DNA from: Escherichia coli | GTDB lineage: Bacteria > Pseudomonadota > Gammaproteobacteria > Enterobacterales > Enterobacteriaceae | DNA: 64,000 nucleotides | Direction: 5' to 3' (one strand) | Assembly (NCBI RefSeq): GCF_003334785.1 | Contig: NZ_QOWV01000009.1 | In this document: positions 1 through 45,241 of the stretch, piece by piece | Numbering within the stretch: position 1 is the first letter of the stretch | How the letters are laid out: each line of letters opens with the position of its first letter | Notes under the pieces: generated by a model | The model's input: only the letters and a program-made list of their open reading frames with translations | Told to the model about the DNA's origin: nothing | Databases searched by the model: none | Program-made: the position numbers and the translations under genes

Positions 1-2689
1 CCAGCCTGCCCGTGGCGCTGTAGCCGTATTCCCGCGTCTGTCGCGGGCCGCTGATGCGCACCAGGTCGCCGTTGTCACTCCACCCGTAGTCACGGTCATA
101 TACCAGGCTGTTCAGGTGCTGGCTCTGTAACTGGCCTGCGGGGGTGTATGTGCTGGTCAGTTCGTATGCGGCATTACTGCCTGCCATGCTGCCGAAGCTG
201 CGCACCGTCTCACGGTGCAGCCTGTCCCGCGTATACTCGACCAGCGGCGTCCCGCCCAGCTTCATTCCCGCCAGGTAACCGCTGCCATACGTCAGCCACT
301 CCACCGGCGGCAGGCTGTCCGGCGTGACGCGGTTTGCCAGCCCCTGCTCGTTGTATGCGTGTTTCGTCTCATGCTGCCACAGCAGTTCCCCCGTCTCCGG
401 GTTCTCCACCGTCTGGCATTCGCCGGTCAGGCGGCCTTTATCGTCATAGCCATAGTGGACGGCAACACGGTGGCCTTCGCTCAGGTGGCTGATGTCTGTC
501 AGCCAGCCGTGGCCATCATACTGCCACTGCTCTGCCGGTTCGCCGTTCACCGTGCGGTGAGTGATACGGTCCGATTCATCGTAGTACCAGAGGATGACAA
601 GTCCCTCATCCTCACTCTGTGTGAGTTTTCCGGTCAGGTCATAATGATAACGTTGCGTCCGCCCGTCAAAGCCGCCCTGCTGTACCAGCCGGTCCAGCGC
701 ATCGTAACTGAAGACGCTGTGGCTGCCGTTCTCGTTGGTCAGGCTGATGACACGTCCGGCAGCATCGTACTCCATACTGCGCGTCAGCCCGCCCTGCGTG
801 GTGCTGACCGCCTTTCCCCACGCATCGTACTGTGTCTCGCTCCGGTTGCCGTCCGGGGTGATAACGGCAGTCAGGTCGCCTGCGGCGTTGTATTCATACC
901 GCGTTTCACGGCCCTGTGCGTCTTTCACCGAGGTTAACCGGCCACGGTTGTCATAGCGGCGGTAAAGGCTGATGCCTTCCTCGCGGTGGACCGCCGTCAT
1001 CTGGCCGAAGCGGTCGTATTCATAACGGGTCTGGTAGCCCGAGCAGTCGGTGAACGCCAGCAACTGCCCGTAGCGGCTCCAGGTCATCTGCCGGGTGCTG
1101 CCCGTCGCATCCGTTGTCGTCGCCGGTAACTCACTGTGCGCGTCATCGTAGCGGTAGCGTACTGTCTCCCCGCTGCGCGATGTCTCCGATACCAGCCTGC
1201 CCGGTTCATCATATTCCCGGCGGCTCTCCAGCCCGTCCGGGGACACCACCGCCGTCAGCTGGTTCCCGTCGTTATAGTAAAATTTCGTCTCCCGCCCGTC
1301 CGGTGTGGTGATGTCCGTGATATCGCCGGACACCACATTCAGACCGTACTCTGTCCTCCGTCCCGCCGCGTCCGTCTGCGCCGTGAGCCTTCCTGCCGCG
1401 TCATACCCGCTGCGCGTGACGCTGCCGTCCGCCAGTTCTTTTTTCACCACCCGTTTCAGCCCGGCCCCGCCTTCTGTATGCAGCACCTCACGCCGGTTCA
1501 GGCTGTCGGTGACGGTGATGCGGTCCTGCTCATAAAGATAGCGGTAGCTTAACCCTGCCGGGTTCAGTTGCTCCACCACCCGCCCCGTATCGTCGTAGCG
1601 GTAGCGCATCTCCGGCCTTCCCGCGTAACGGTGCGCCACCATCCGGCCCGGGTGCTGCGCGTCATACGTGAAAGCGCGCACCTGCGTATTGCTGCGGTCA
1701 TATACCGCCAGCAGTTCACCGGCTTCCGTATACGTGTACCGCACCAGTGGCGCAGCGGGCAGGCTCTCCGGGTATGCCGGGTCGTGCATCAGCCACACCG
1801 CCGAAAGGCGGATACCCCTGTCGGGGCCGTATTCGGTACCGGGCAGTGTGTCGGGGAACGCTGAGGCTGAGAGAGGGCGGGAACTGTCAGAAGAAGATAG
1901 CGAAGAGGTGCGGGCCTCTTCCGCACGCTGCGCCTGCGTGGTCAGCACCAGACGGAACTCCCGCCCGGCACCGTCCGTCACGCCGGTGATTTCCCCGGCC
2001 AGGTCACCGGCGGCCTCACGCCGGTACGTCAGCGTCCGCCCGAAGCGGTCCGCCATCCCGGTAAGCACCCGGTACGGCGGCAGCGGCGCTGGCAGTACGT
2101 CCTCAGCACCCGGCACCCGCTCAGACCACCCCAGTATCCACCACGGCCCCTGTGCGCTGTTGGTCGCCAGGTAAAGATGCGGGCTTAACCGGATATCCGG
2201 CGGCAGCGCCCCCCACAGCCGCGCCAGCGTATGGCCGTCCGGCTGTGCTGCCTTACCACCGCGCACCAGCCACATTGACTCACTGCGGCTGTACACCGCC
2301 TCCCCCGGCAGCAGCGGCTCAAAGTGAATGCTCCGCCCGCCGTTGTCGTTGAGTATCAGTCCGTCATCACGTAGCTGTAAGCGGATATCAGAAGGCGCTT
2401 TCCAGCCGGGGCCGAAAACGCCCACCGGTGCAGGCGTCTTCGTCCGGTAGCTGCTGTAGGTGCGGGAGAGAATGAACGGCAGCGGGCCGGGCAGCGCAAG
2501 GTCCGTCTCGCCGGGCAGCACCTTCGCCCCCAGCAGCGGATTTACCGGGTTGCCCGAAGTCATCCCGCCCGGACACACCGAGCACGCCACGCCGGTGGGC
2601 GCGCCAATTCTTACACCTGCCGAACCCTGGACAATGGGACCGCCATACTGAGTCATATCTCCCTGACGCGCCGCTGGTTTTCCGCTCAT
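1..2689 (-). CDS. rhsD: Rhs-family polymorphic toxin, N-terminal and core portion (5' end in window, 3' end lies beyond window start)
   Basis: Minus-strand translation from ATG at 2689 reads MSGKPAARQGDMTQYGGPIVQGSAGVRIGAPTGVACSVCPGGMTSGNPVNPLLGAKVLPGETDLALPGPLPF..., the conserved Rhs N-terminus. Absence of any minus-strand ORF in the track implies the frame stays open to position 1. Body is visibly GC-rich. Lies next to ybbP as in K-12. YD repeats not checked residue by residue. Confidence 0.85.
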   Translation of the reverse strand, partial: MSGKPAARQGDMTQYGGPIVQGSAGVRIGAPTGVACSVCPGGMTSGNPVNPLLGAKVLPGETDLALPGPLPFILSRTYSSYRTKTPAPVGVFGPGWKAPSDIRLQLRDDGLILNDNGGRSIHFEPLLPGEAVYSRSESMWLVRGGKAAQPDGHTLARLWGALPPDIRLSPHLYLATNSAQGPWWILGWSERVPGAEDVLPAPLPPYRVLTGMADRFGRTLTYRREAAGDLAGEITGVTDGAGREFRLVLTTQAQRAEEARTSSLSSSDSSRPLSASAFPDTLPGTEYGPDRGIRLSAVWLMHDPAYPESLPAAPLVRYTYTEAGELLAVYDRSNTQVRAFTYDAQHPGRMVAHRYAGRPEMRYRYDDTGRVVEQLNPAGLSYRYLYEQDRITVTDSLNRREVLHTEGGAGLKRVVKKELADGSVTRSGYDAAGRLTAQTDAAGRRTEYGLNVVSGDITDITTPDGRETKFYYNDGNQLTAVVSPDGLESRREYDEPGRLVSETSRSGETVRYRYDDAHSELPATTTDATGSTRQMTWSRYGQLLAFTDCSGYQTRYEYDRFGQMTAVHREEGISLYRRYDNRGRLTSVKDAQGRETRYEYNAAGDLTAVITPDGNRSETQYDAWGKAVSTTQGGLTRSMEYDAAGRVISLTNENGSHSVFSYDALDRLVQQGGFDGRTQRYHYDLTGKLTQSEDEGLVILWYYDESDRITHRTVNGEPAEQWQYDGHGWLTDISHLSEGHRVAVHYGYDDKGRLTGECQTVENPETGELLWQHETKHAYNEQGLANRVTPDSLPPVEWLTYGSGYLAGMKLGGTPLVEYTRDRLHRETVRSFGSMAGSNAAYELTSTYTPAGQLQSQHLNSLVYDRDYGWSDNGDLVRISGPRQTREYGYSATGRL

Positions 2690-3069
2690 ATAAAGTGCCC
2701 TTTTAGTTATTGTTCATATCCCTGTGTTAGCAACAAAAAAAAATAAAATGACACACAAGACCAGCTAATGTATTTATATATTTTTCACATAAACTTATTT
2801 GTTCTCAATCAACAACAACTGTTATTACAGGTCACTTTCAATATTTTATTAAACTAACATTTTTAGCACAGATGAATTCATCATCAACAAATTCACTATA
2901 TGGATAATATCCATTCAACGCATATGATTTATGATTTTATTAGTCTGAGTTATTTTTGTAGGGCTATATTTAAAATCAATAAACTCCACCGATTCAGATT
3001 AATATCAGCAATAGAAAGATAGGAAATCACCAATTCAATAACATCATCAATGAAACATATTGTAGAATT

Positions 3070-3104
3070 AATTTAAACAAGGCGTTCCATTCAACCAGAA
3101 CGCC
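3070..3104 (-). terminator. Intrinsic terminator downstream of ybbA-ybbP
   Basis: Minus-strand hairpin GGCGTTC-N10-GAACGCC followed by TTGTTTAAATTAATT. Confidence 0.5.
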
Positions 3105-3119
3105 CCTTATTTACTCTCA

Positions 3120-5534
3120 TCACCCCGCAAACTGCCTGAACAGCGCCTTACCCTTAACCAGTCGCGCACCCAGCCAGCCGCCGAAAAGCGACAGCAGCAG
3201 CGCTCCGCTGCACGGCAGAACAATCCACAATCGCCAGTCTGGCTCCCACGGAAAATCAAACACTTTCGCCTGCAACACTGCCAGCGCCGTTTCCGCACCA
3301 ATTGCGGCCACCAGGCCGGAAACAAACCCAAGCATGGCGAACTCACACCACAACGTGGTACGCAGCAGTTTTTTCCCCGCACCGAGTGTGCGCCACACCA
3401 CCAGCTCCTGATGACGCTGACGCATTCCCACCTGCACCTGTGCCAGCAACAGCAACATACCGCAGGCGGTGACCAGTACCACCATCACTTCCAGCGCCCG
3501 ACTTACCTGCTCCAGCACCTGACCGACCTGTTTTAAAATCGCGCCAATATCTAACAGGCTAATGGTCGGGAACTGGCGGTTGAGTTGTGTCAACATGCCG
3601 TTGCCATTCTCCCAGCGGAAACTGGTAAGCCAGCTCTGCGGTTGCCCGTCTAATGCCCCTTCAGGGAAAATAAAATAGAAATTAGGCCGCAGACTTTCCC
3701 AGTCCACTTTGCGCAGGCTGGTCACTTTAGCGCGGAACTCCTGGGTATCGCCCATAAAAGTCACGGTATCACCGAGGGCAACGTTTAAGCGTTTCGCCAG
3801 CCCCTCTTCCATCGACACTTCATCGGCTTTTGGCGGCCAGTTACCGGCGACAATCGGATTATGATCGGGCCGCGTATTTTGCCAGGTAAGATTGAGTTCG
3901 CGGTTAAGCGCCTCATCTTCATTACCTTCTGTCGGCTTATCGTTAATCGCCGTCAGCCGCGCCCGCACCACCGGATAAAACGATTCCGGGACTATCTGAT
4001 GTTCCGCGAGGAACGCTTTTAGCGGTGCTACCTGTTCTGTGGCGATGTTAATTAAAAAGTAGTTCGGGCTTTCTGGAGGTAGCTGCTGCTGCCAGCGGTC
4101 GAGCAGATCGCCACGCAACACCAGCAGCAGTGCCAGCAGCATAAAGGAGAGCGAAAATGCCGAAAGCTGACTTAACGTTGACCACGGCTGACGTAACAGG
4201 CGGCTAACCGCCAGGCGCAGAGGCAGCGATTTCAGCGTCATGCGGCGAAGTACATTCAGCAGCATCCAGCCCAGCACACCGCACAGCAAAGCCAGTACTA
4301 CCGCGCCCGCCAGCACCGCCCAAAGCAGCATGCTGCCACCCATTAATCCGGCGAGCAGCAGCACAACCACCACACTGACAATCGGCAGATAAAACTTCAG
4401 CGGCCAGACGTTCGCTACCACATCATTACGTAATACGCGTAAAGGCTGCGTTGCCAGCAACAAGCGATATGGTCGTAGCCCCACCAGCAGCGAGATGACC
4501 GTCATGGTGCCAAGCGCCCACAGCCACGGCCAGAGGCTGGCTGGCGGTAGTGCAGCAGGCAGAACGGGCTTGAGCAGCACCATCAACACGTTTTCGAACA
4601 ACAGGCCTATGGCCCCACCGGTAACGGCTGAAAGCGTCAGCACCATCAACCACTGACCGACGATTAGCTTACGCAGTTGCGCTCGCCCTGCCCCCAGCGT
4701 TTTGAGGATCGCCACCAGATCGTAGCGACTGCGACAGTAATGATTCATCGCTACCGCCACCGCTGCCACTGCCAGCAGCAAGGTCAGAAGCGCCGAAAGC
4801 AGCAGGAACTGTTGCGAGCGTTCCATCGATCGCCCCAGCGCGCCTTCGTCCTGTTCCAGACCGTACCAGCGTTGTTCGGGTTTAAGCTGAGGTAACAACC
4901 ATTTCTCATAGCCGTCGAGCTGGTTCTCGTTGCCGCCGAATTTATAACGCCAGGTGACCCGACTCCCCGGCTGCACGGCTCCGGTTTTATCGACATCCGC
5001 CAGATTCATCATCAGACGCGGAGCCATCTGGAAGGGGTTAAAACCGGAATCCGGTTCCTGAATCACTTCTCCGGCAATCCGCAAGGTGGCATCGCCCACG
5101 TCAATGGTGTCGCCCGTTTTCAGGTTAAGCAGTGCCATCAGGCGTGGGGCCAGCAATACGCTGCCCGCCTGCGGTTTCAGGCCAGGGGGATTAGTTTGCA
5201 GATCGCCATACATCGGGTAGATATCATCCACCGCTTTGACGTTCGCCAGCTGCGGTGTGTCGCCTGCAAAGGTCATTGTGGCGAAAGTCAGCTGCTTGCC
5301 GACTTTCAGGCCGCGCTTTTGCGCTTCCTCCAGCCACGCTTGCGGCACTTCGCGTGAACTGCGCAACGCCCGATCGCCCGCCATAAACTCACGGCTTTGC
5401 TGGCTTAAGCCCTTCTCCATGCGATCGCTGATATTGCCCAGCGCCAGCACGCAGGCCACCGCCAGGCTTAGCGCCAGCCAGACAATTAATAGCGACGGCG
5501 AACGCCATTCGCGCCAGAACCAACGTGCAATCAT
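3120..5534 (-). CDS. ybbP: ABC transporter permease, MacB/FtsX-type with large periplasmic domains (804 aa)
   Basis: ORF track 3120..5534; multiple TM segments and duplicated FtsX-like permease architecture; start ATG overlaps ybbA stop (ATGA). Confidence 0.9.
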   Translation of the reverse strand: MIARWFWREWRSPSLLIVWLALSLAVACVLALGNISDRMEKGLSQQSREFMAGDRALRSSREVPQAWLEEAQKRGLKVGKQLTFATMTFAGDTPQLANVKAVDDIYPMYGDLQTNPPGLKPQAGSVLLAPRLMALLNLKTGDTIDVGDATLRIAGEVIQEPDSGFNPFQMAPRLMMNLADVDKTGAVQPGSRVTWRYKFGGNENQLDGYEKWLLPQLKPEQRWYGLEQDEGALGRSMERSQQFLLLSALLTLLLAVAAVAVAMNHYCRSRYDLVAILKTLGAGRAQLRKLIVGQWLMVLTLSAVTGGAIGLLFENVLMVLLKPVLPAALPPASLWPWLWALGTMTVISLLVGLRPYRLLLATQPLRVLRNDVVANVWPLKFYLPIVSVVVVLLLAGLMGGSMLLWAVLAGAVVLALLCGVLGWMLLNVLRRMTLKSLPLRLAVSRLLRQPWSTLSQLSAFSLSFMLLALLLVLRGDLLDRWQQQLPPESPNYFLINIATEQVAPLKAFLAEHQIVPESFYPVVRARLTAINDKPTEGNEDEALNRELNLTWQNTRPDHNPIVAGNWPPKADEVSMEEGLAKRLNVALGDTVTFMGDTQEFRAKVTSLRKVDWESLRPNFYFIFPEGALDGQPQSWLTSFRWENGNGMLTQLNRQFPTISLLDIGAILKQVGQVLEQVSRALEVMVVLVTACGMLLLLAQVQVGMRQRHQELVVWRTLGAGKKLLRTTLWCEFAMLGFVSGLVAAIGAETALAVLQAKVFDFPWEPDWRLWIVLPCSGALLLSLFGGWLGARLVKGKALFRQFAG

Positions 5535-6217
5535 GCTTCCTCCTGCAACTGCCCGTTCACCAGCCGTAAGCAGCGGTCGCAGCGTGCCGCCAGTTGCAGG
5601 TCGTGGGTCACCATAATCAACGTGGTGCCATGTTCACGGTTGAGGGAAAACAGCAGGTCGGCAATTTTATCGCCCGTCTGGCGGTCAAGGTTGCCGGTGG
5701 GTTCGTCGGCAAACAGCACATCAGGTCGACCATTAAAGGCTCGTGCCAGCGCCACTCGTTGCTGTTCACCGCCGGAAAGCTGTGCCGGAAGATGATCCAG
5801 ACGTTTACCCAGCCCTAACTGTTCGAGCAACGCTTTCGCCCCGTTACGACTTTCCGCGCTACTCTCACCGCGCAGCAGAGCCGGAAGCTCGACGTTTTCC
5901 AGCGCGTTAAGGGTAGGAATTAACATAAATGACTGAAAAACAAAGCCGACGTGCTTCGCGCGCAACTTTGCCCGCGCTTCTTCGTCCATATTATGTAGCG
6001 GTTGTCCCACCAGACTCACTTCGCCACTGCTGCCGTCATCAAGCCCGGCGAGGATCGCCAGCAAGGTTGACTTACCCGATCCCGACTCGCCCACCAGTGC
6101 GATGGTCTCGCCACGTTTGACAACCAGCTCAACTCCGGTGAGGATGGAGAGTTCATGCTCCCCCTGACCGACGGACTTCTTAAGATGATGAACTTCAACA
6201 ATGTTTTCCGCTGGCAT
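5531..6217 (-). CDS. ybbA: ABC transporter ATP-binding protein
   Basis: Walker A GESGSGKST, ABC signature LSGGEQQRVALARA, Walker B LFADEPTGNLD; 4-bp overlap with ybbP. Confidence 0.92.
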   Translation of the reverse strand: MPAENIVEVHHLKKSVGQGEHELSILTGVELVVKRGETIALVGESGSGKSTLLAILAGLDDGSSGEVSLVGQPLHNMDEEARAKLRAKHVGFVFQSFMLIPTLNALENVELPALLRGESSAESRNGAKALLEQLGLGKRLDHLPAQLSGGEQQRVALARAFNGRPDVLFADEPTGNLDRQTGDKIADLLFSLNREHGTTLIMVTHDLQLAARCDRCLRLVNGQLQEEA

Positions 6218-31926: not shown

Positions 31927-33858
31927 TCAAATGGGGCGGATACTTTCTTCATCCAGCTCCGCATCGAAGAACCGACGCAGGGTCTGAATATTATTATCCG
32001 CAATAATGGACTCGCGCGCCTGCGCAAGTTTTTCTTCGTATATCGCCTGACGCCACTCCAGCGGCGTACGCACCGCGGGATTATCATCTTCAACGATAGT
32101 CAGTTCAACCGTTGAACCTTTTAACATGCTCAACGCTTCAGCCAGTTTTTGCTGTGCACCGCGGTTGTTCAAATGCCGCTGAGAGGAGCGCAAATGCAGA
32201 CATACTGCGTTGTCGCTCTCCTCTTTCCAGGCATTTAACGCCACCTGTTCGACCAGTTTTGGTAGCGAAAGTTGGCTCACCTGTGCCGCCCACGGGTCGC
32301 GCTCAATGGCTTCTGCCGCTAGCTTCGCCGCCAGTTCCGGCGTTTTTTCATGTTCCAGCGCTTTTTTCAGCGCCTTCGGCGTGGCGACCACTTCTTTTTG
32401 CTGCATCACCGGAGTGGTCGCCTTCCAGCGATACGCTTCTTTTTTGGCTGGCGCTTTTTCCAGCGCCGATGGCACCGGACGCGCCTGAACGCGATCGGTG
32501 ACCGAAGCCAGTCTTTCCAGCGCAGCGTTATTCACCGGCCGCGCGCGGGTAGCGGCTGCCGGTTCACTCTTTTTTGCTTTGGTTGCTCCCTGCACGCGCT
32601 GCAACTGCTGGCGCGCCGCCAGCACCTGGCTGGTGGTTTCCGGGAGCGGTACAGTCGGTGCCTGCTGCGGCGCTGATTGCGGTTGCGGCGGCACCTGGGT
32701 TGGCGTCATTACTGCCGTTGGCGCGACGGGTGCAAAGGACTGTCGTGGCACTTCTGGCTCAGGCAGCGGCATACGCGGATGGAATGCCAGCGCGCGCAGC
32801 AGCGTCATCTCAACGCCCATGCGACGGTCCGGCGCATACGGTAATTCTTTGCGACCAATCAACAGCGTCTGATAGTAAAGCTGAATATCCGTCGGCGGTA
32901 TGGTGCGCGCCAGTTCACGCATCCGCAGCTCGATGGCGGCCATGTCGTTGCCAAGTGCAGCAGGCGAAAGTTGTACCATCGCAATACGATGCAACAGGCC
33001 GAGCATTTCCACCAGCAACGCTTCCCACTCGATACCACGGGCAGCGGCTTCATTAATCAGCGCCATTACGCGCTCGCCGTTGGCCTCGACCATCGCTTCA
33101 ACCAGCGACAGCGCCTGATCGTCGTCAAGCGTACCCAGCATCGCACTGACCGCCTGGGTTGAAACCTGGCCGTCACCGCTGGCAATCGCCTGGTCGGTCA
33201 GACTTAAGGCATCTCGCAGGCTGCCTTCAGCGGCGCGTGCCAGCAATTGCAGCGCCCGCGGCTCGTGAGCGATATGTTCTTCGTTGAGGATGTGCTCAAG
33301 CTGATGGCGAATTTGCTCGACATCCAGCGCCTTGAGATGAAATTGCAGACAGCGTGACAAAATCGTCACCGGCAATTTCTGTGGATCGGTCGTCGCCAGC
33401 AGAAACTTAACGTGCTCCGGCGGCTCTTCAAGGGTTTTTAACAGTGCGTTAAAGCTGTGGCGCGACAGCATATGCACTTCGTCGATCAGATAAACTTTGA
33501 AACGACCACGCGCCGGAGCGTACTGGACGTTATCCAGCAGGTCGCGGGTATCTTCAACTTTGGTGCGCGAGGCGGCGTCGATTTCAATCAGATCGACAAA
33601 GCGCCCCTGCTCGATTTCACGACAGTTATCGCACACGCCGCACGGCGTCGCGGTAATGCCGGTTTCGCAGTTTAGCCCCTTCGCCAGCAGTCGGGCGATA
33701 GAGGTTTTTCCGACGCCACGGGTGCCGGAAAAAAGATAAGCATGATGAATACGCCCTAACGACAAGCCGTTCGCCAGTGCGGTCAGCACATGTTCCTGGC
33801 CGACGACGTCAGCAAAGGTTTGTGGGCGCCATTTTCGGGCTAAGACCTGATAACTCAT
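31927..33858 (-). CDS. dnaX: DNA polymerase III subunits tau (full length) and gamma (via -1 frameshift)
   Basis: AAA+ Walker A GTRGVGKTS; internal A AAA AAG slippery site at codons 428-430. Confidence 0.95.
   Translation of the reverse strand: MSYQVLARKWRPQTFADVVGQEHVLTALANGLSLGRIHHAYLFSGTRGVGKTSIARLLAKGLNCETGITATPCGVCDNCREIEQGRFVDLIEIDAASRTKVEDTRDLLDNVQYAPARGRFKVYLIDEVHMLSRHSFNALLKTLEEPPEHVKFLLATTDPQKLPVTILSRCLQFHLKALDVEQIRHQLEHILNEEHIAHEPRALQLLARAAEGSLRDALSLTDQAIASGDGQVSTQAVSAMLGTLDDDQALSLVEAMVEANGERVMALINEAAARGIEWEALLVEMLGLLHRIAMVQLSPAALGNDMAAIELRMRELARTIPPTDIQLYYQTLLIGRKELPYAPDRRMGVEMTLLRALAFHPRMPLPEPEVPRQSFAPVAPTAVMTPTQVPPQPQSAPQQAPTVPLPETTSQVLAARQQLQRVQGATKAKKSEPAAATRARPVNNAALERLASVTDRVQARPVPSALEKAPAKKEAYRWKATTPVMQQKEVVATPKALKKALEHEKTPELAAKLAAEAIERDPWAAQVSQLSLPKLVEQVALNAWKEESDNAVCLHLRSSQRHLNNRGAQQKLAEALSMLKGSTVELTIVEDDNPAVRTPLEWRQAIYEEKLAQARESIIADNNIQTLRRFFDAELDEESIRPI
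32564..32575 (-). other. dnaX: Programmed -1 ribosomal frameshift site in dnaX (A AAA AAG; -1 frame reads AAA AAA GAG TGA)
   Basis: Minus strand GCA AAA AAG AGT GAA at codons 428-432, followed by the GC-rich stem CCGGCAGCCGCTACCCGCGCGCGGCCGG. Confidence 0.9.
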
Positions 33859-41543: not shown

Positions 41544-44696
<3,153 letters not shown>

Positions 44697-44713
44697 TACA
44701 ACGTGTAATCACT

Positions 44714-44738
44714 AAGGCCGCGTAAGCGGCCTTTTTTA
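44714..44738 (+). terminator. Intrinsic terminator downstream of acrB
   Basis: AGGCCGC-gtaa-GCGGCCT followed by TTTTTT. Confidence 0.8.
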
Positions 44739-45241
44739 TGCATAACCTACGAACATTAAGGAGTAATTGAACCACCAACTCAGGATCTCATACGAAAACC
44801 AGTATTAACCACGGATAAAATTCATAAAAAATACTGATTGTTAGTTAATTTATATTAAGTAGCGCTAATAGATTTAATAATCCATAATCATTTAGAGGCT
44901 ATTCTTAATTATTTGCGGTAATTCTTTATTCATTCCTCGGTTATTACGTCATATTCAGAGCAATCCTGGTATTAGTGTCACCAATTTCATCTGGCGATAA
45001 TCCTGAAATGTTATGAATAGTTCGAGCAAACTGCTTTTACCTGCTGCGGGTTAGTGCTAGTATGAAAAAGTGAGTCCTGTCCCGCTTCCTTCCTAATTGT
45101 AATTTTTCGTAATAATGCGATGAAAACCTGCAAAGAGTGGCTTATAGTTAAGCTAACAAACGAGAGGGCAAGTCCAGGTCAGTAAGTTTTTTCCATCCCG
45201 AAAGGTGTCCGTTAGTTCAACCGCTAAGAAGGGGACGCGTT

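Follow-up and report, generated by a model that had tools for sequence, protein, structure and literature searches.

The left end of the analysed window, a 64,000-nucleotide stretch of an Escherichia coli contig, contains the start of rhsD, a polymorphic-toxin gene of E. coli K-12 that has long been known. Positions 2689 to 1 of the minus strand form a single frame of 896 codons that begins in translation with MSGKPAARQGDMTQYGG and contains no stop, and the remaining two minus-strand frames over the same interval are closed by 34 and 40 stops; by base composition alone, 896 open codons would occur with a probability of about 6e-12. An earlier note made from the letters alone had described this GC-rich frame (GC 0.642) as uninterrupted, and indeed neither a stop codon nor a frameshift is present; its explanation for the omission of the frame from the list of open reading frames, namely that it leaves the window edge without a stop, was also borne out. 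The interval 1-3200 matches E. coli K-12 MG1655 with 100% identity, and in that genome the gene is annotated as 'rhs element protein RhsD' (b0497, WP_000014739.1). Based on the open frame, this identity and the NCBIfam RHS_core model, positions 1..2689 (minus strand) represent codons 1-896 of the 1426 codons of rhsD, i.e. 63% of the gene. The rest of rhsD is situated beyond window position 1. The sequence does not differ from that of the K-12 RhsD element known from the work of the Hill laboratory on Rhs elements, and both share the neighbours ybbP, ybbA and tesA, the downstream ybbC with an orphan fragment, and the classic mosaic of AT-rich DNA flanking a GC-rich core. Four intact rhs genes are present in K-12. 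The observation is thus correct and already described, since the literature and the RefSeq annotation cover rhsD with its composition mosaic, the families of its tip and immunity protein, and the leader bound by H-NS; its use is that of a calibration, showing that raw sequence alone sufficed to recognise correctly both an Rhs gene and the break in composition.

The identity of the protein as an Rhs polymorphic toxin is confirmed by the NCBIfam equivalog RHS_core (NF041261), which aligns model positions 1-1261 with residues 1-1258 of RhsD at 2787.7 bits (cut-off 2000 bits). The N-terminal piece (residues 1-47, positions 2549..2689, minus strand), which ends before P48, can be called PAAR-like on the basis of weak PAAR matches and the alignment with Tse5: the Pfam PAAR model (PF05488) matches over its positions 52-69/70 with E 0.2, and residues 2-29 weakly resemble the last repeat of the stand-alone PAAR proteins 4jiv_D and 9rce_c (E 0.04-0.1). 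According to Pfam and the structure-sequence alignment, a complete PAAR domain of three repeats is absent from the RhsD N-terminus, which holds one repeat-like segment. It is followed by DUF6531 (residues 46-123, positions 2321..2554, minus strand; Pfam E 4e-18), which in the structure of Tse5 closes the Rhs cage as its N-terminal plug (PMC10684867). The shell of YD/RHS repeats extends from about residue 320 to residue 896 (positions 1..1732, minus strand) and continues outside the window; its assignment relies on Pfam, on the TIGR01643 YD repeat (E 1.8e-47) and on homology to the cages of Tse5, RhsA, Tse15 and Salmonella Rhs proteins. Together with DUF6531, the in-window fragment contains at least nine significant RHS/YD repeats (nine Pfam RHS_repeat matches with E<=0.001, weaker ones besides), and hence the repeats expected of an Rhs core are present. 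The dN/dS ratio of codons 1-896 compared with O157:H7 is 0.18, and 0.15 for the core, which indicates at the sequence level that the rhsD core is under purifying selection. Moreover, the intact reading frame is 100% identical in many strains.

The extension past position 1 that the earlier note had proposed can be taken from the K-12 record, and both the variable tips and the immunity genes, which it had placed outside the window, are found there. The RhsD sequence shows a DPxG-x18-DPxG autoprotease motif at residues 1232-1257, with PLQQIDPMGL at 1249-1258, and the RHS-associated core model TIGR03696 is matched with E 3.3e-23. The following tip of 168 aa, residues 1259-1426, belongs to DUF4329 (Tox-JAB-2, E 7.5e-38) and has the H-T-H...S..D residues, with the H-T-H at 1356-1358; in the literature it has been predicted to be a nuclease or RNase. 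A sequence search with the DUF4329 tip against solved structures gave no match. Downstream of rhsD lie ybbC, an orphan tip, which has a small ORF of its own, and ybbD. YbbC is an Imm-NTF2-2 protein (E 6.8e-26), and the pairing of Tox-JAB-2 with Imm-NTF2-2 has been described (PMC3482391); from the sequences, YbbC is predicted to neutralise the RhsD tip. PADLOC anti-phage models did not match RhsD, YbbC, the orphan tip or YbbD. The leader in front of rhsD occurs in 2907 of 5426 E. coli genomes and the K-12 tip in 1895. O157:H7 has the common leader and core with a different tip, and its main tip matches the orphan of K-12 with 98% identity. The sequence comparison therefore indicates that tips are swapped between strains and that displaced tips persist as downstream orphans.

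The closest solved homologue of RhsD is Tse5 (PA2684) of Pseudomonas aeruginosa (E 7e-122), and P48 of RhsD aligns with residue 1 of the shell chain 8cp6_B. Residues 1-47 of Tse5 (PDB 8cp6) are a cleaved 'PAAR-like' fragment required for secretion (PMC10684867), and both proteins start with such a 47-residue piece followed by P48-V-N-P, then the DUF6531 plug, the YD cage and a DPxG...DPxG autoprotease ahead of the toxin. Differences exist in the spacing of the DPxG motif (x18 in RhsD, x19 in Tse5) and in the toxin itself, since Tse5-CT is a pore former whereas RhsD carries DUF4329/Tox-JAB-2. Furthermore, Tse5 acts with a cognate VgrG and an active H1-T6SS, both of which are missing in K-12. 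A further related system is the SPI-6 rhs locus of Salmonella Typhimurium (PMC7043789; Koskiniemi 2014). In both loci an orphan tip and the immunity gene belonging to it lie downstream of a full-length rhs gene; the silencing of the delivery part by H-NS and the displacement of tips by recombination are also shared. However, the Salmonella rhs gene lies inside a T6SS island beside vgrG, whereas rhsD stands alone, with housekeeping genes on either side, and its genome has no T6SS.

Upstream of rhsD the base composition changes abruptly. The GC content drops from 0.642 (1-2689) to 0.270 (2690-3060) or 0.284 (2690-3119) and returns to 0.576 in ybbP. Among the 370-bp windows over the 64 kb (mean 0.527, sd 0.053), the lowest value of 0.262, approximately 5 sd under the mean, begins at 2701, such that the AT-rich stretch is the minimum of the entire window, and the highest value of 0.711 begins at 1901 within the rhsD reading frame. 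The sharp break at the 5' end of the gene, as it had been proposed from the letters alone, is thus verified; the AT-rich stretch itself is, however, a part of the insert and not host flank. The RhsD element is a 7.3-kb insert, gained by horizontal transfer, between mnmH (ybbB) and ybbP, and the homology of rhsD-less genomes stops 3-6 bases after the ybbP stop codon, at approximately window position 3114. The BLAST breakpoints fall on query positions 211-218 of window 2900-3500 in about 2500 genomes, and the alignment of K-12 with UPEC_U013, which served as empty-site reference, stops at L001 12114, corresponding to window position 3114. The last bases common to element-less genomes (3114..3119) abut the ybbP stop codon (3120-3122). 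Because homology ends at about 3114 in genomes lacking rhsD, the whole AT-rich leader belongs to the element, and this clarification from the 5,426-genome comparison defines a leader of 424 bp (2690..3113, minus strand; GC ~0.28) at the proximal end of the element, which is single copy and missing from the empty site. The same comparison showed that T6SS effector cassettes land repeatedly at the mnmH-ybbP junction, which is occupied either by the Rhs element or by an Hcp-toxin cassette. A terminator-like hairpin was found by consensus scan just past ybbP inside the insert (3079..3106, minus strand); empty-site genomes are devoid of it and have a REP-like sequence after ybbP. Repeats or inverted repeats at the insert end did not exceed short matches at chance level, and at its distal end the element contains vestigial pieces of rhs and part of an IS. 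AL.H8 was ruled out as an empty site, since it represents an IS1-associated deletion of the whole element.

The comparison of the AT-rich flank with H-NS binding data, which had also been suggested, is already available in published work and is positive. The ybbP/rhsD spacer (304 bp) is one of 78 'promoter islands' and carries the H-NS grade 'A', meaning all compiled studies (PMC3661553 Table 1, Panyukov and Ozoline 2013), and it is listed as an RpoD SELEX site with an HNS flag (PMC3946193, Shimada 2014). The putative promoter published there consists of the hexamers TTAATA-17-TGTAAT (2824..2852, minus strand), of which the -10 hexamer spans 2829-2824, a pattern that occurs a single time in the window, and a candidate Shine-Dalgarno-like AAAAGGG (2698..2704, minus strand) was read from the sequence 8 nt before the rhsD ATG (2689-2687). 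As in the published promoter islands (PMC3661553, PMC3946193), an AT-rich tract is located beside a horizontally acquired gene. A simple and stricter consensus scan of the rhsD leader detected 2 sigma-70 hexamer sites versus 1.7 expected from composition-matched shuffles and hence no excess of promoter-like sites, whereby the published call uses a different algorithm, PlatProm. The H-NS consensus was likewise not clearly enriched in the leader by a consensus scan. Given the weak signals of our own promoter and H-NS scans, the assumption of silencing leans on PMC3661553 and PMC3946193.

Collectively, window positions 1-3113 are best explained as the promoter-proximal part of an acquired RhsD element encoding a Tse5-like, T6SS-type toxin that is silenced by H-NS and undeliverable in K-12, a reading to which we assign a probability of roughly 0.88. 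RhsD is built in this order from the 47-residue PAAR-like piece, the DUF6531 plug, the YD cage, an aspartyl autoprotease plug and the DUF4329 toxin. By analogy to the solved homologues, the cage may enclose the toxin and RhsD may cut itself twice, ahead of P48 and behind L1258; its N-terminal piece might seat it on a VgrG spike, from which it would be delivered into rival cells upon contact. The 424-bp leader arrived with the element and would carry the promoter, and H-NS, according to the published ChIP and SELEX data, covers it and would keep rhsD silent. Expression, cleavage, toxicity, immunity and delivery of RhsD we infer from the related systems. K-12 harbours no T6SS (PMC6730261), and therefore rhsD is there most likely a silenced, undeliverable effector accompanied by its immunity gene. 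A vgrG, hcp, eag or chaperone gene was found neither in the 7.3-kb element nor in its flanks.

The missing T6SS could also mean that the K-12 locus is a decaying, functionless relic, with the leader being foreign low-GC DNA that is coated non-specifically by H-NS and carries no evolved regulation. Promoter islands have been reported to be transcriptionally silent, other strains have IS1 insertions in the leader or have lost the whole element through an IS1-associated deletion, and the vestigial rhs and IS fragments at the distal end would fit decay as well. However, the identity of the intact frame in many strains and the purifying selection on the core argue against it, as does the finding that the same leader precedes an intact rhsD in T6SS-positive lineages such as O157:H7, making this explanation unlikely. 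The assumption that rhsD is kept in K-12 for a T6SS-independent job is suggested by the intact gene and the selected core despite the lack of a T6SS. The locus might then act as an internally transcribed toxin-immunity addiction module, as in Salmonella, or the AT-rich leader might be a self-silencing cassette that moves along with the element and is switched on in some natural condition; we regard this as quite unlikely. Its more specific version, in which the element works in T6SS-less K-12 as an intracellular toxin-antitoxin or addiction-like module, would need tip and immunity gene to be expressed from promoters inside rhsD, while leader and delivery part would be irrelevant. In Salmonella Typhimurium, such internal promoters are situated ~89 nt upstream of the PxxxxDPxGL-coding sequence and raise rhs-CT and rhsI ~100-fold above the delivery part (PMC7043789), and the maintenance of an intact 1426-codon frame in K-12 without a T6SS is in line with this possibility. 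Nevertheless, a simple scan of the rhsD strand from the core end to ybbC revealed no sigma-70-like site, and the intact frame and the dN/dS of 0.15 would reflect the history in T6SS-bearing lineages, so that an addiction module in K-12 appears very unlikely.

Finally, the AT-rich stretch could hide a gene of its own, for a small RNA or a small protein, that has no relation to rhsD, because its 430 bp are very well conserved. Their pairwise divergence is 0.2-1.4%, whereas synonymous sites diverge by 3.5-8.6% in ybbP and by 1-10.6% in codons 1-240 of rhsD, a difference for which AT mutation bias offers no explanation. This explanation is largely refuted and has to be considered extremely improbable, since an Rfam scan of positions 1-6000 gave no match at E<=1, stops abound in each of the six frames of the leader (the longest ORF encodes a low-complexity 40 aa on the opposite strand), and the low divergence is unspecific. 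It is common to all unique DNA of the element: the distal ~2 kb, which reach from the orphan tip into the final 119 bases of mnmH, are 99.70% identical between K-12 and O157, and of 1896 records with tip plus ybbC, 1892 show an identity of at least 99%. Hence, an exceptional constraint specific for the leader was ruled out, and the low divergence across all unique element DNA points to a young element. The rhsD dS climbs from ~0.1 to ~0.3 toward the 3' end, and these sequence data suggest that the higher divergence of the rhs core may result from exchange between paralogues.

The minus strand from 2689 to position 1 forms one reading frame of 896 codons without a stop, whose translation begins with MSGKPAARQGDMTQYGG. 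The remaining two minus-strand frames contain 34 and 40 stops, and by base composition alone 896 open codons have a chance of about 6e-12. It escapes the mechanical ORF list solely because it continues past the window edge. Windowed GC content was 0.642 for 1-2689 against 0.270 for 2690-3060 (0.284 for 2690-3119), with 0.576 in the adjoining gene ybbP. Among 370-bp windows over all 64 kb (mean 0.527, sd 0.053), the lowest GC (0.262) starts at 2701 and the highest (0.711) at 1901, within the rhsD ORF. In the translated fragment, residues 46-123 match DUF6531 (E 4e-18), and at least nine RHS repeats reach significance. The composition and frame observation is real at these coordinates and far beyond chance, and the claims of the earlier note, i.e., an uninterrupted GC-rich Rhs frame that escapes the ORF track for want of an in-window stop and is preceded by strikingly AT-rich DNA, were all borne out; neither a stop nor a frameshift was found in the frame. 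Elsewhere in the window, the acrB-tomB spacer (44641-45190, minimum 0.335) is the sole further stretch with GC below 0.36, and another GC-rich stretch lies within dnaX (32261-33270, maximum 0.665); both are ordinary annotated K-12 features.

The feature is already known: it is the previously annotated and published rhsD with its H-NS-bound leader, and the first reading was correct. Over window 1-3200 the sequence agrees at every position (100% identity) with E. coli K-12 MG1655 and many further strains, in which the annotation gives rhsD followed by ybbP, and a single mismatch separates the fetched MG1655 record (L001) from the window across their 12.2-kb overlap. In this record rhsD has 4281 nt and encodes 1426 aa, therefore the window contains codons 1-896. 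Beyond rhsD, the window carries the usual core genes of K-12 (ybbP, ybbA, tesA ... acrAB, dnaX, ppiD). Full-length RhsD scored 2787.7 bits against the NCBI curated "RHS element core protein" equivalog (cut-off 2000 bits), with residues 1-1258 spanning the entire model. Its serine-rich low-complexity segment at residues ~261-275 (TSSLSSSDSSRPLSAS; window 1865-1909) is the most variable spot of the otherwise conserved N-terminal third; here the O157:H7 protein shows several substitutions and an indel of 3 residues.

Among solved structures, Tse5, a T6SS effector of P. aeruginosa (8cp6_B, E 7e-122), is closest, followed by P. protegens RhsA, Acinetobacter Tse15 and the Salmonella Rhs cages. In Tse5, a PAAR-like fragment of 5 kDa (residues 1-47) is cleaved off and required for secretion, the DUF6531 region plugs the cage at its N-terminal end, and the toxin is released by a DPxG...DPxG aspartyl protease (PMC10684867). 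RhsD P48 falls opposite the first residue of the Tse5 shell chain (PVNPLLGAK versus PVNPMLGSK), and beyond the window the K-12 record shows DPMG-x18-DPMG at residues 1232-1257, with PLQQIDPMGL at 1249-1258. By homology we infer that RhsD shares the three-piece architecture of Tse5, with probable cleavage before P48 and after L1258. Residues 2-29 weakly resemble the last of three stand-alone PAAR repeats only (E 0.04-0.1), and the Pfam PAAR model was matched at positions 52-69 of 70 (E 0.2); the N-terminus is therefore PAAR-like but no complete PAAR domain.

The variable C-terminal tip and the immunity gene, which the earlier note had placed outside the window, the tip after a PxxxxDPxGL motif, were both recovered from the K-12 record. 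The tip comprises the 168 residues following DPMGL; it is a DUF4329 domain (E 7.5e-38) and shows the signature H-T-H ... S..D. This domain was named Tox-JAB-2 by Zhang et al., who predicted it to be a nuclease and assigned "Imm-NTF2 family 2" immunity proteins as its partner (PMC3482391); later papers call it an RNase domain. The next gene, ybbC, encodes an Imm-NTF2-2 protein (E 6.8e-26). It is followed by an orphan fragment of 236 aa consisting of a core end and tip, an overlapping YbbD-family ORF of 86 aa, a vestigial Rhs N-terminus without start codon (ISGKPAARQGDMPQYGGPIVQGSAGV..., L001 5358-5453, minus strand) and, adjoining the latter, the IS481-like transposase fragment ylbG. The vestigial N-terminus has 79% DNA identity to rhsD codons 1-32; the alignment breaks off precisely at the start codon, and the AT-rich leader is therefore not duplicated there. 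PADLOC defence models gave no match to RhsD, YbbC, the orphan tip or YbbD.

Comparison with the empty site of strain UPEC_U013, in which mnmH and ybbP are ~140 bp apart with REP-like sequence between them, defined the insert. The match to K-12 ends at L001 4825 and resumes at L001 12114 (window 3114), therefore the insert covers L001 4826-12113, i.e., 7288 bp. Likewise, in ~2500 genomes with ybbP but without the 430-bp AT-rich spacer, homology ends at window 3110-3117; this single-copy spacer occurs in 2907 of 5426 complete E. coli genomes. The ybbP-side end lies 3-6 bases past the ybbP stop codon. Judged from these alignments, the entire AT-rich leader (2690-3113) belongs to the insert, including a terminator-like hairpin following ybbP (3106-3079, minus strand), so that transcripts of ybbP in K-12 may depend on inserted sequence to terminate. 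In empty-site strains the REP-like sequence takes the place of the hairpin. The order of AT-rich leader, GC-rich core and AT-rich tip/immunity/orphan region corresponds to the classic Rhs-element mosaic.

The K-12 tip with ybbC was found in 1895 genomes, ~1000 fewer than the leader. In O157:H7 the leader is identical to that of K-12 at 425 of 429 positions and the core is 94% identical up to DPxGL; its main tip, followed by the YbbD-family ORF, has 98% identity to the K-12 orphan. So the K-12 DUF4329-ybbC module stands in front of that tip, an arrangement that reads as textbook tip displacement.

Across six diverse genomes the leader diverges by 0.2-1.4%, compared with synonymous divergence of 3.5-8.6% for ybbP and 1-10.6% over rhsD codons 1-240. 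AT-biased mutation does not account for this: in ybbP 14% of four-fold A/T sites and 4.5% of four-fold G/C sites differ, compared with 0.66% of A/T and 1.4% of G/C sites in the leader. Exceptional constraint specific to the leader was also rejected, because the ~2 kb at the distal end, which start with the final 119 bases of mnmH and reach the orphan tip (99.70% identity, K-12 versus O157), and the tip with ybbC (at least 99% identical in 1892 of 1896 records) are equally little diverged. Low divergence is therefore a property of all unique, non-core element DNA (window 2690-3113 and L001 4700-6687; ~0.3-1% between lineages, against ~7% at ybbP synonymous sites), which suggests that the insert was recently acquired and is younger than the surrounding core genome, or was spread across it by recombination. 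The dS of the core between K-12 and O157:H7 is higher and rises from ~0.09-0.11 (codons 1-600) to 0.27-0.33 (codons 601-1258), which may reflect exchange among rhs paralogues.

The proposed comparison of the 5' flank with H-NS data is answered by published work. The ybbP/rhsD spacer (304 bp) is among the 78 "promoter islands" of Panyukov and Ozoline, who list it as bound by H-NS in every study they compiled (PMC3661553). It also contains an RpoD-holoenzyme SELEX site flagged HNS, with the promoter TTAATA-17-TGTAAT (Shimada et al., PMC3946193), a pattern whose sole occurrence in the window lies on the rhsD strand at 2852-2824. In our scans of the leader, sigma-70-like sites were no more numerous than in shuffles of matched composition, the H-NS consensus was not clearly enriched, and no meaningful repeats turned up. 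That the leader conceals a gene is improbable, given that it has neither an Rfam match nor a credible ORF.

Identity, domain architecture, insert boundaries, tip polymorphism and composition are established here. RhsD is probably a T6SS-type toxin enclosed in a cage, whose short N-terminal piece would mount on the VgrG spike; it would cleave itself and deliver the DUF4329 toxin, which YbbC would neutralise. T6SS is absent from K-12 (PMC6730261), and K-12 rhsD is likely silenced by H-NS and lacks a delivery machine. A functionless relic at the K-12 locus has a low probability; the rhsD core has a dN/dS of 0.15, which indicates purifying selection. We give similarly little weight to a T6SS-independent toxin-immunity module transcribed internally, as in Salmonella (PMC7043789); no promoter-like site for it was found on the rhsD strand.

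In strain Z0117EC0013 (L004 9189-11841), the Rhs element is replaced by a 667-aa Hcp-toxin fusion (annotated tssD) and a DUF2931 gene. Counted anywhere in the genome, this cassette is carried by 574 of the 5426 genomes, frequently in multiple copies. The mnmH-ybbP junction thus seems to be a place at which T6SS effector cassettes insert repeatedly. In AL.H8 (L002 8249-8946), an IS1 stands at the point where the entire Rhs element and the greater part of the leader are lost; EC590, C1 and E54 have an IS1 copy somewhere in their match to window 1-3200 or 2900-3500. An O169:H41 strain (L003 11403-12006) has ~600 bp of unannotated filler between mnmH and ybbP, with no match to the K-12 element or to the short empty site.
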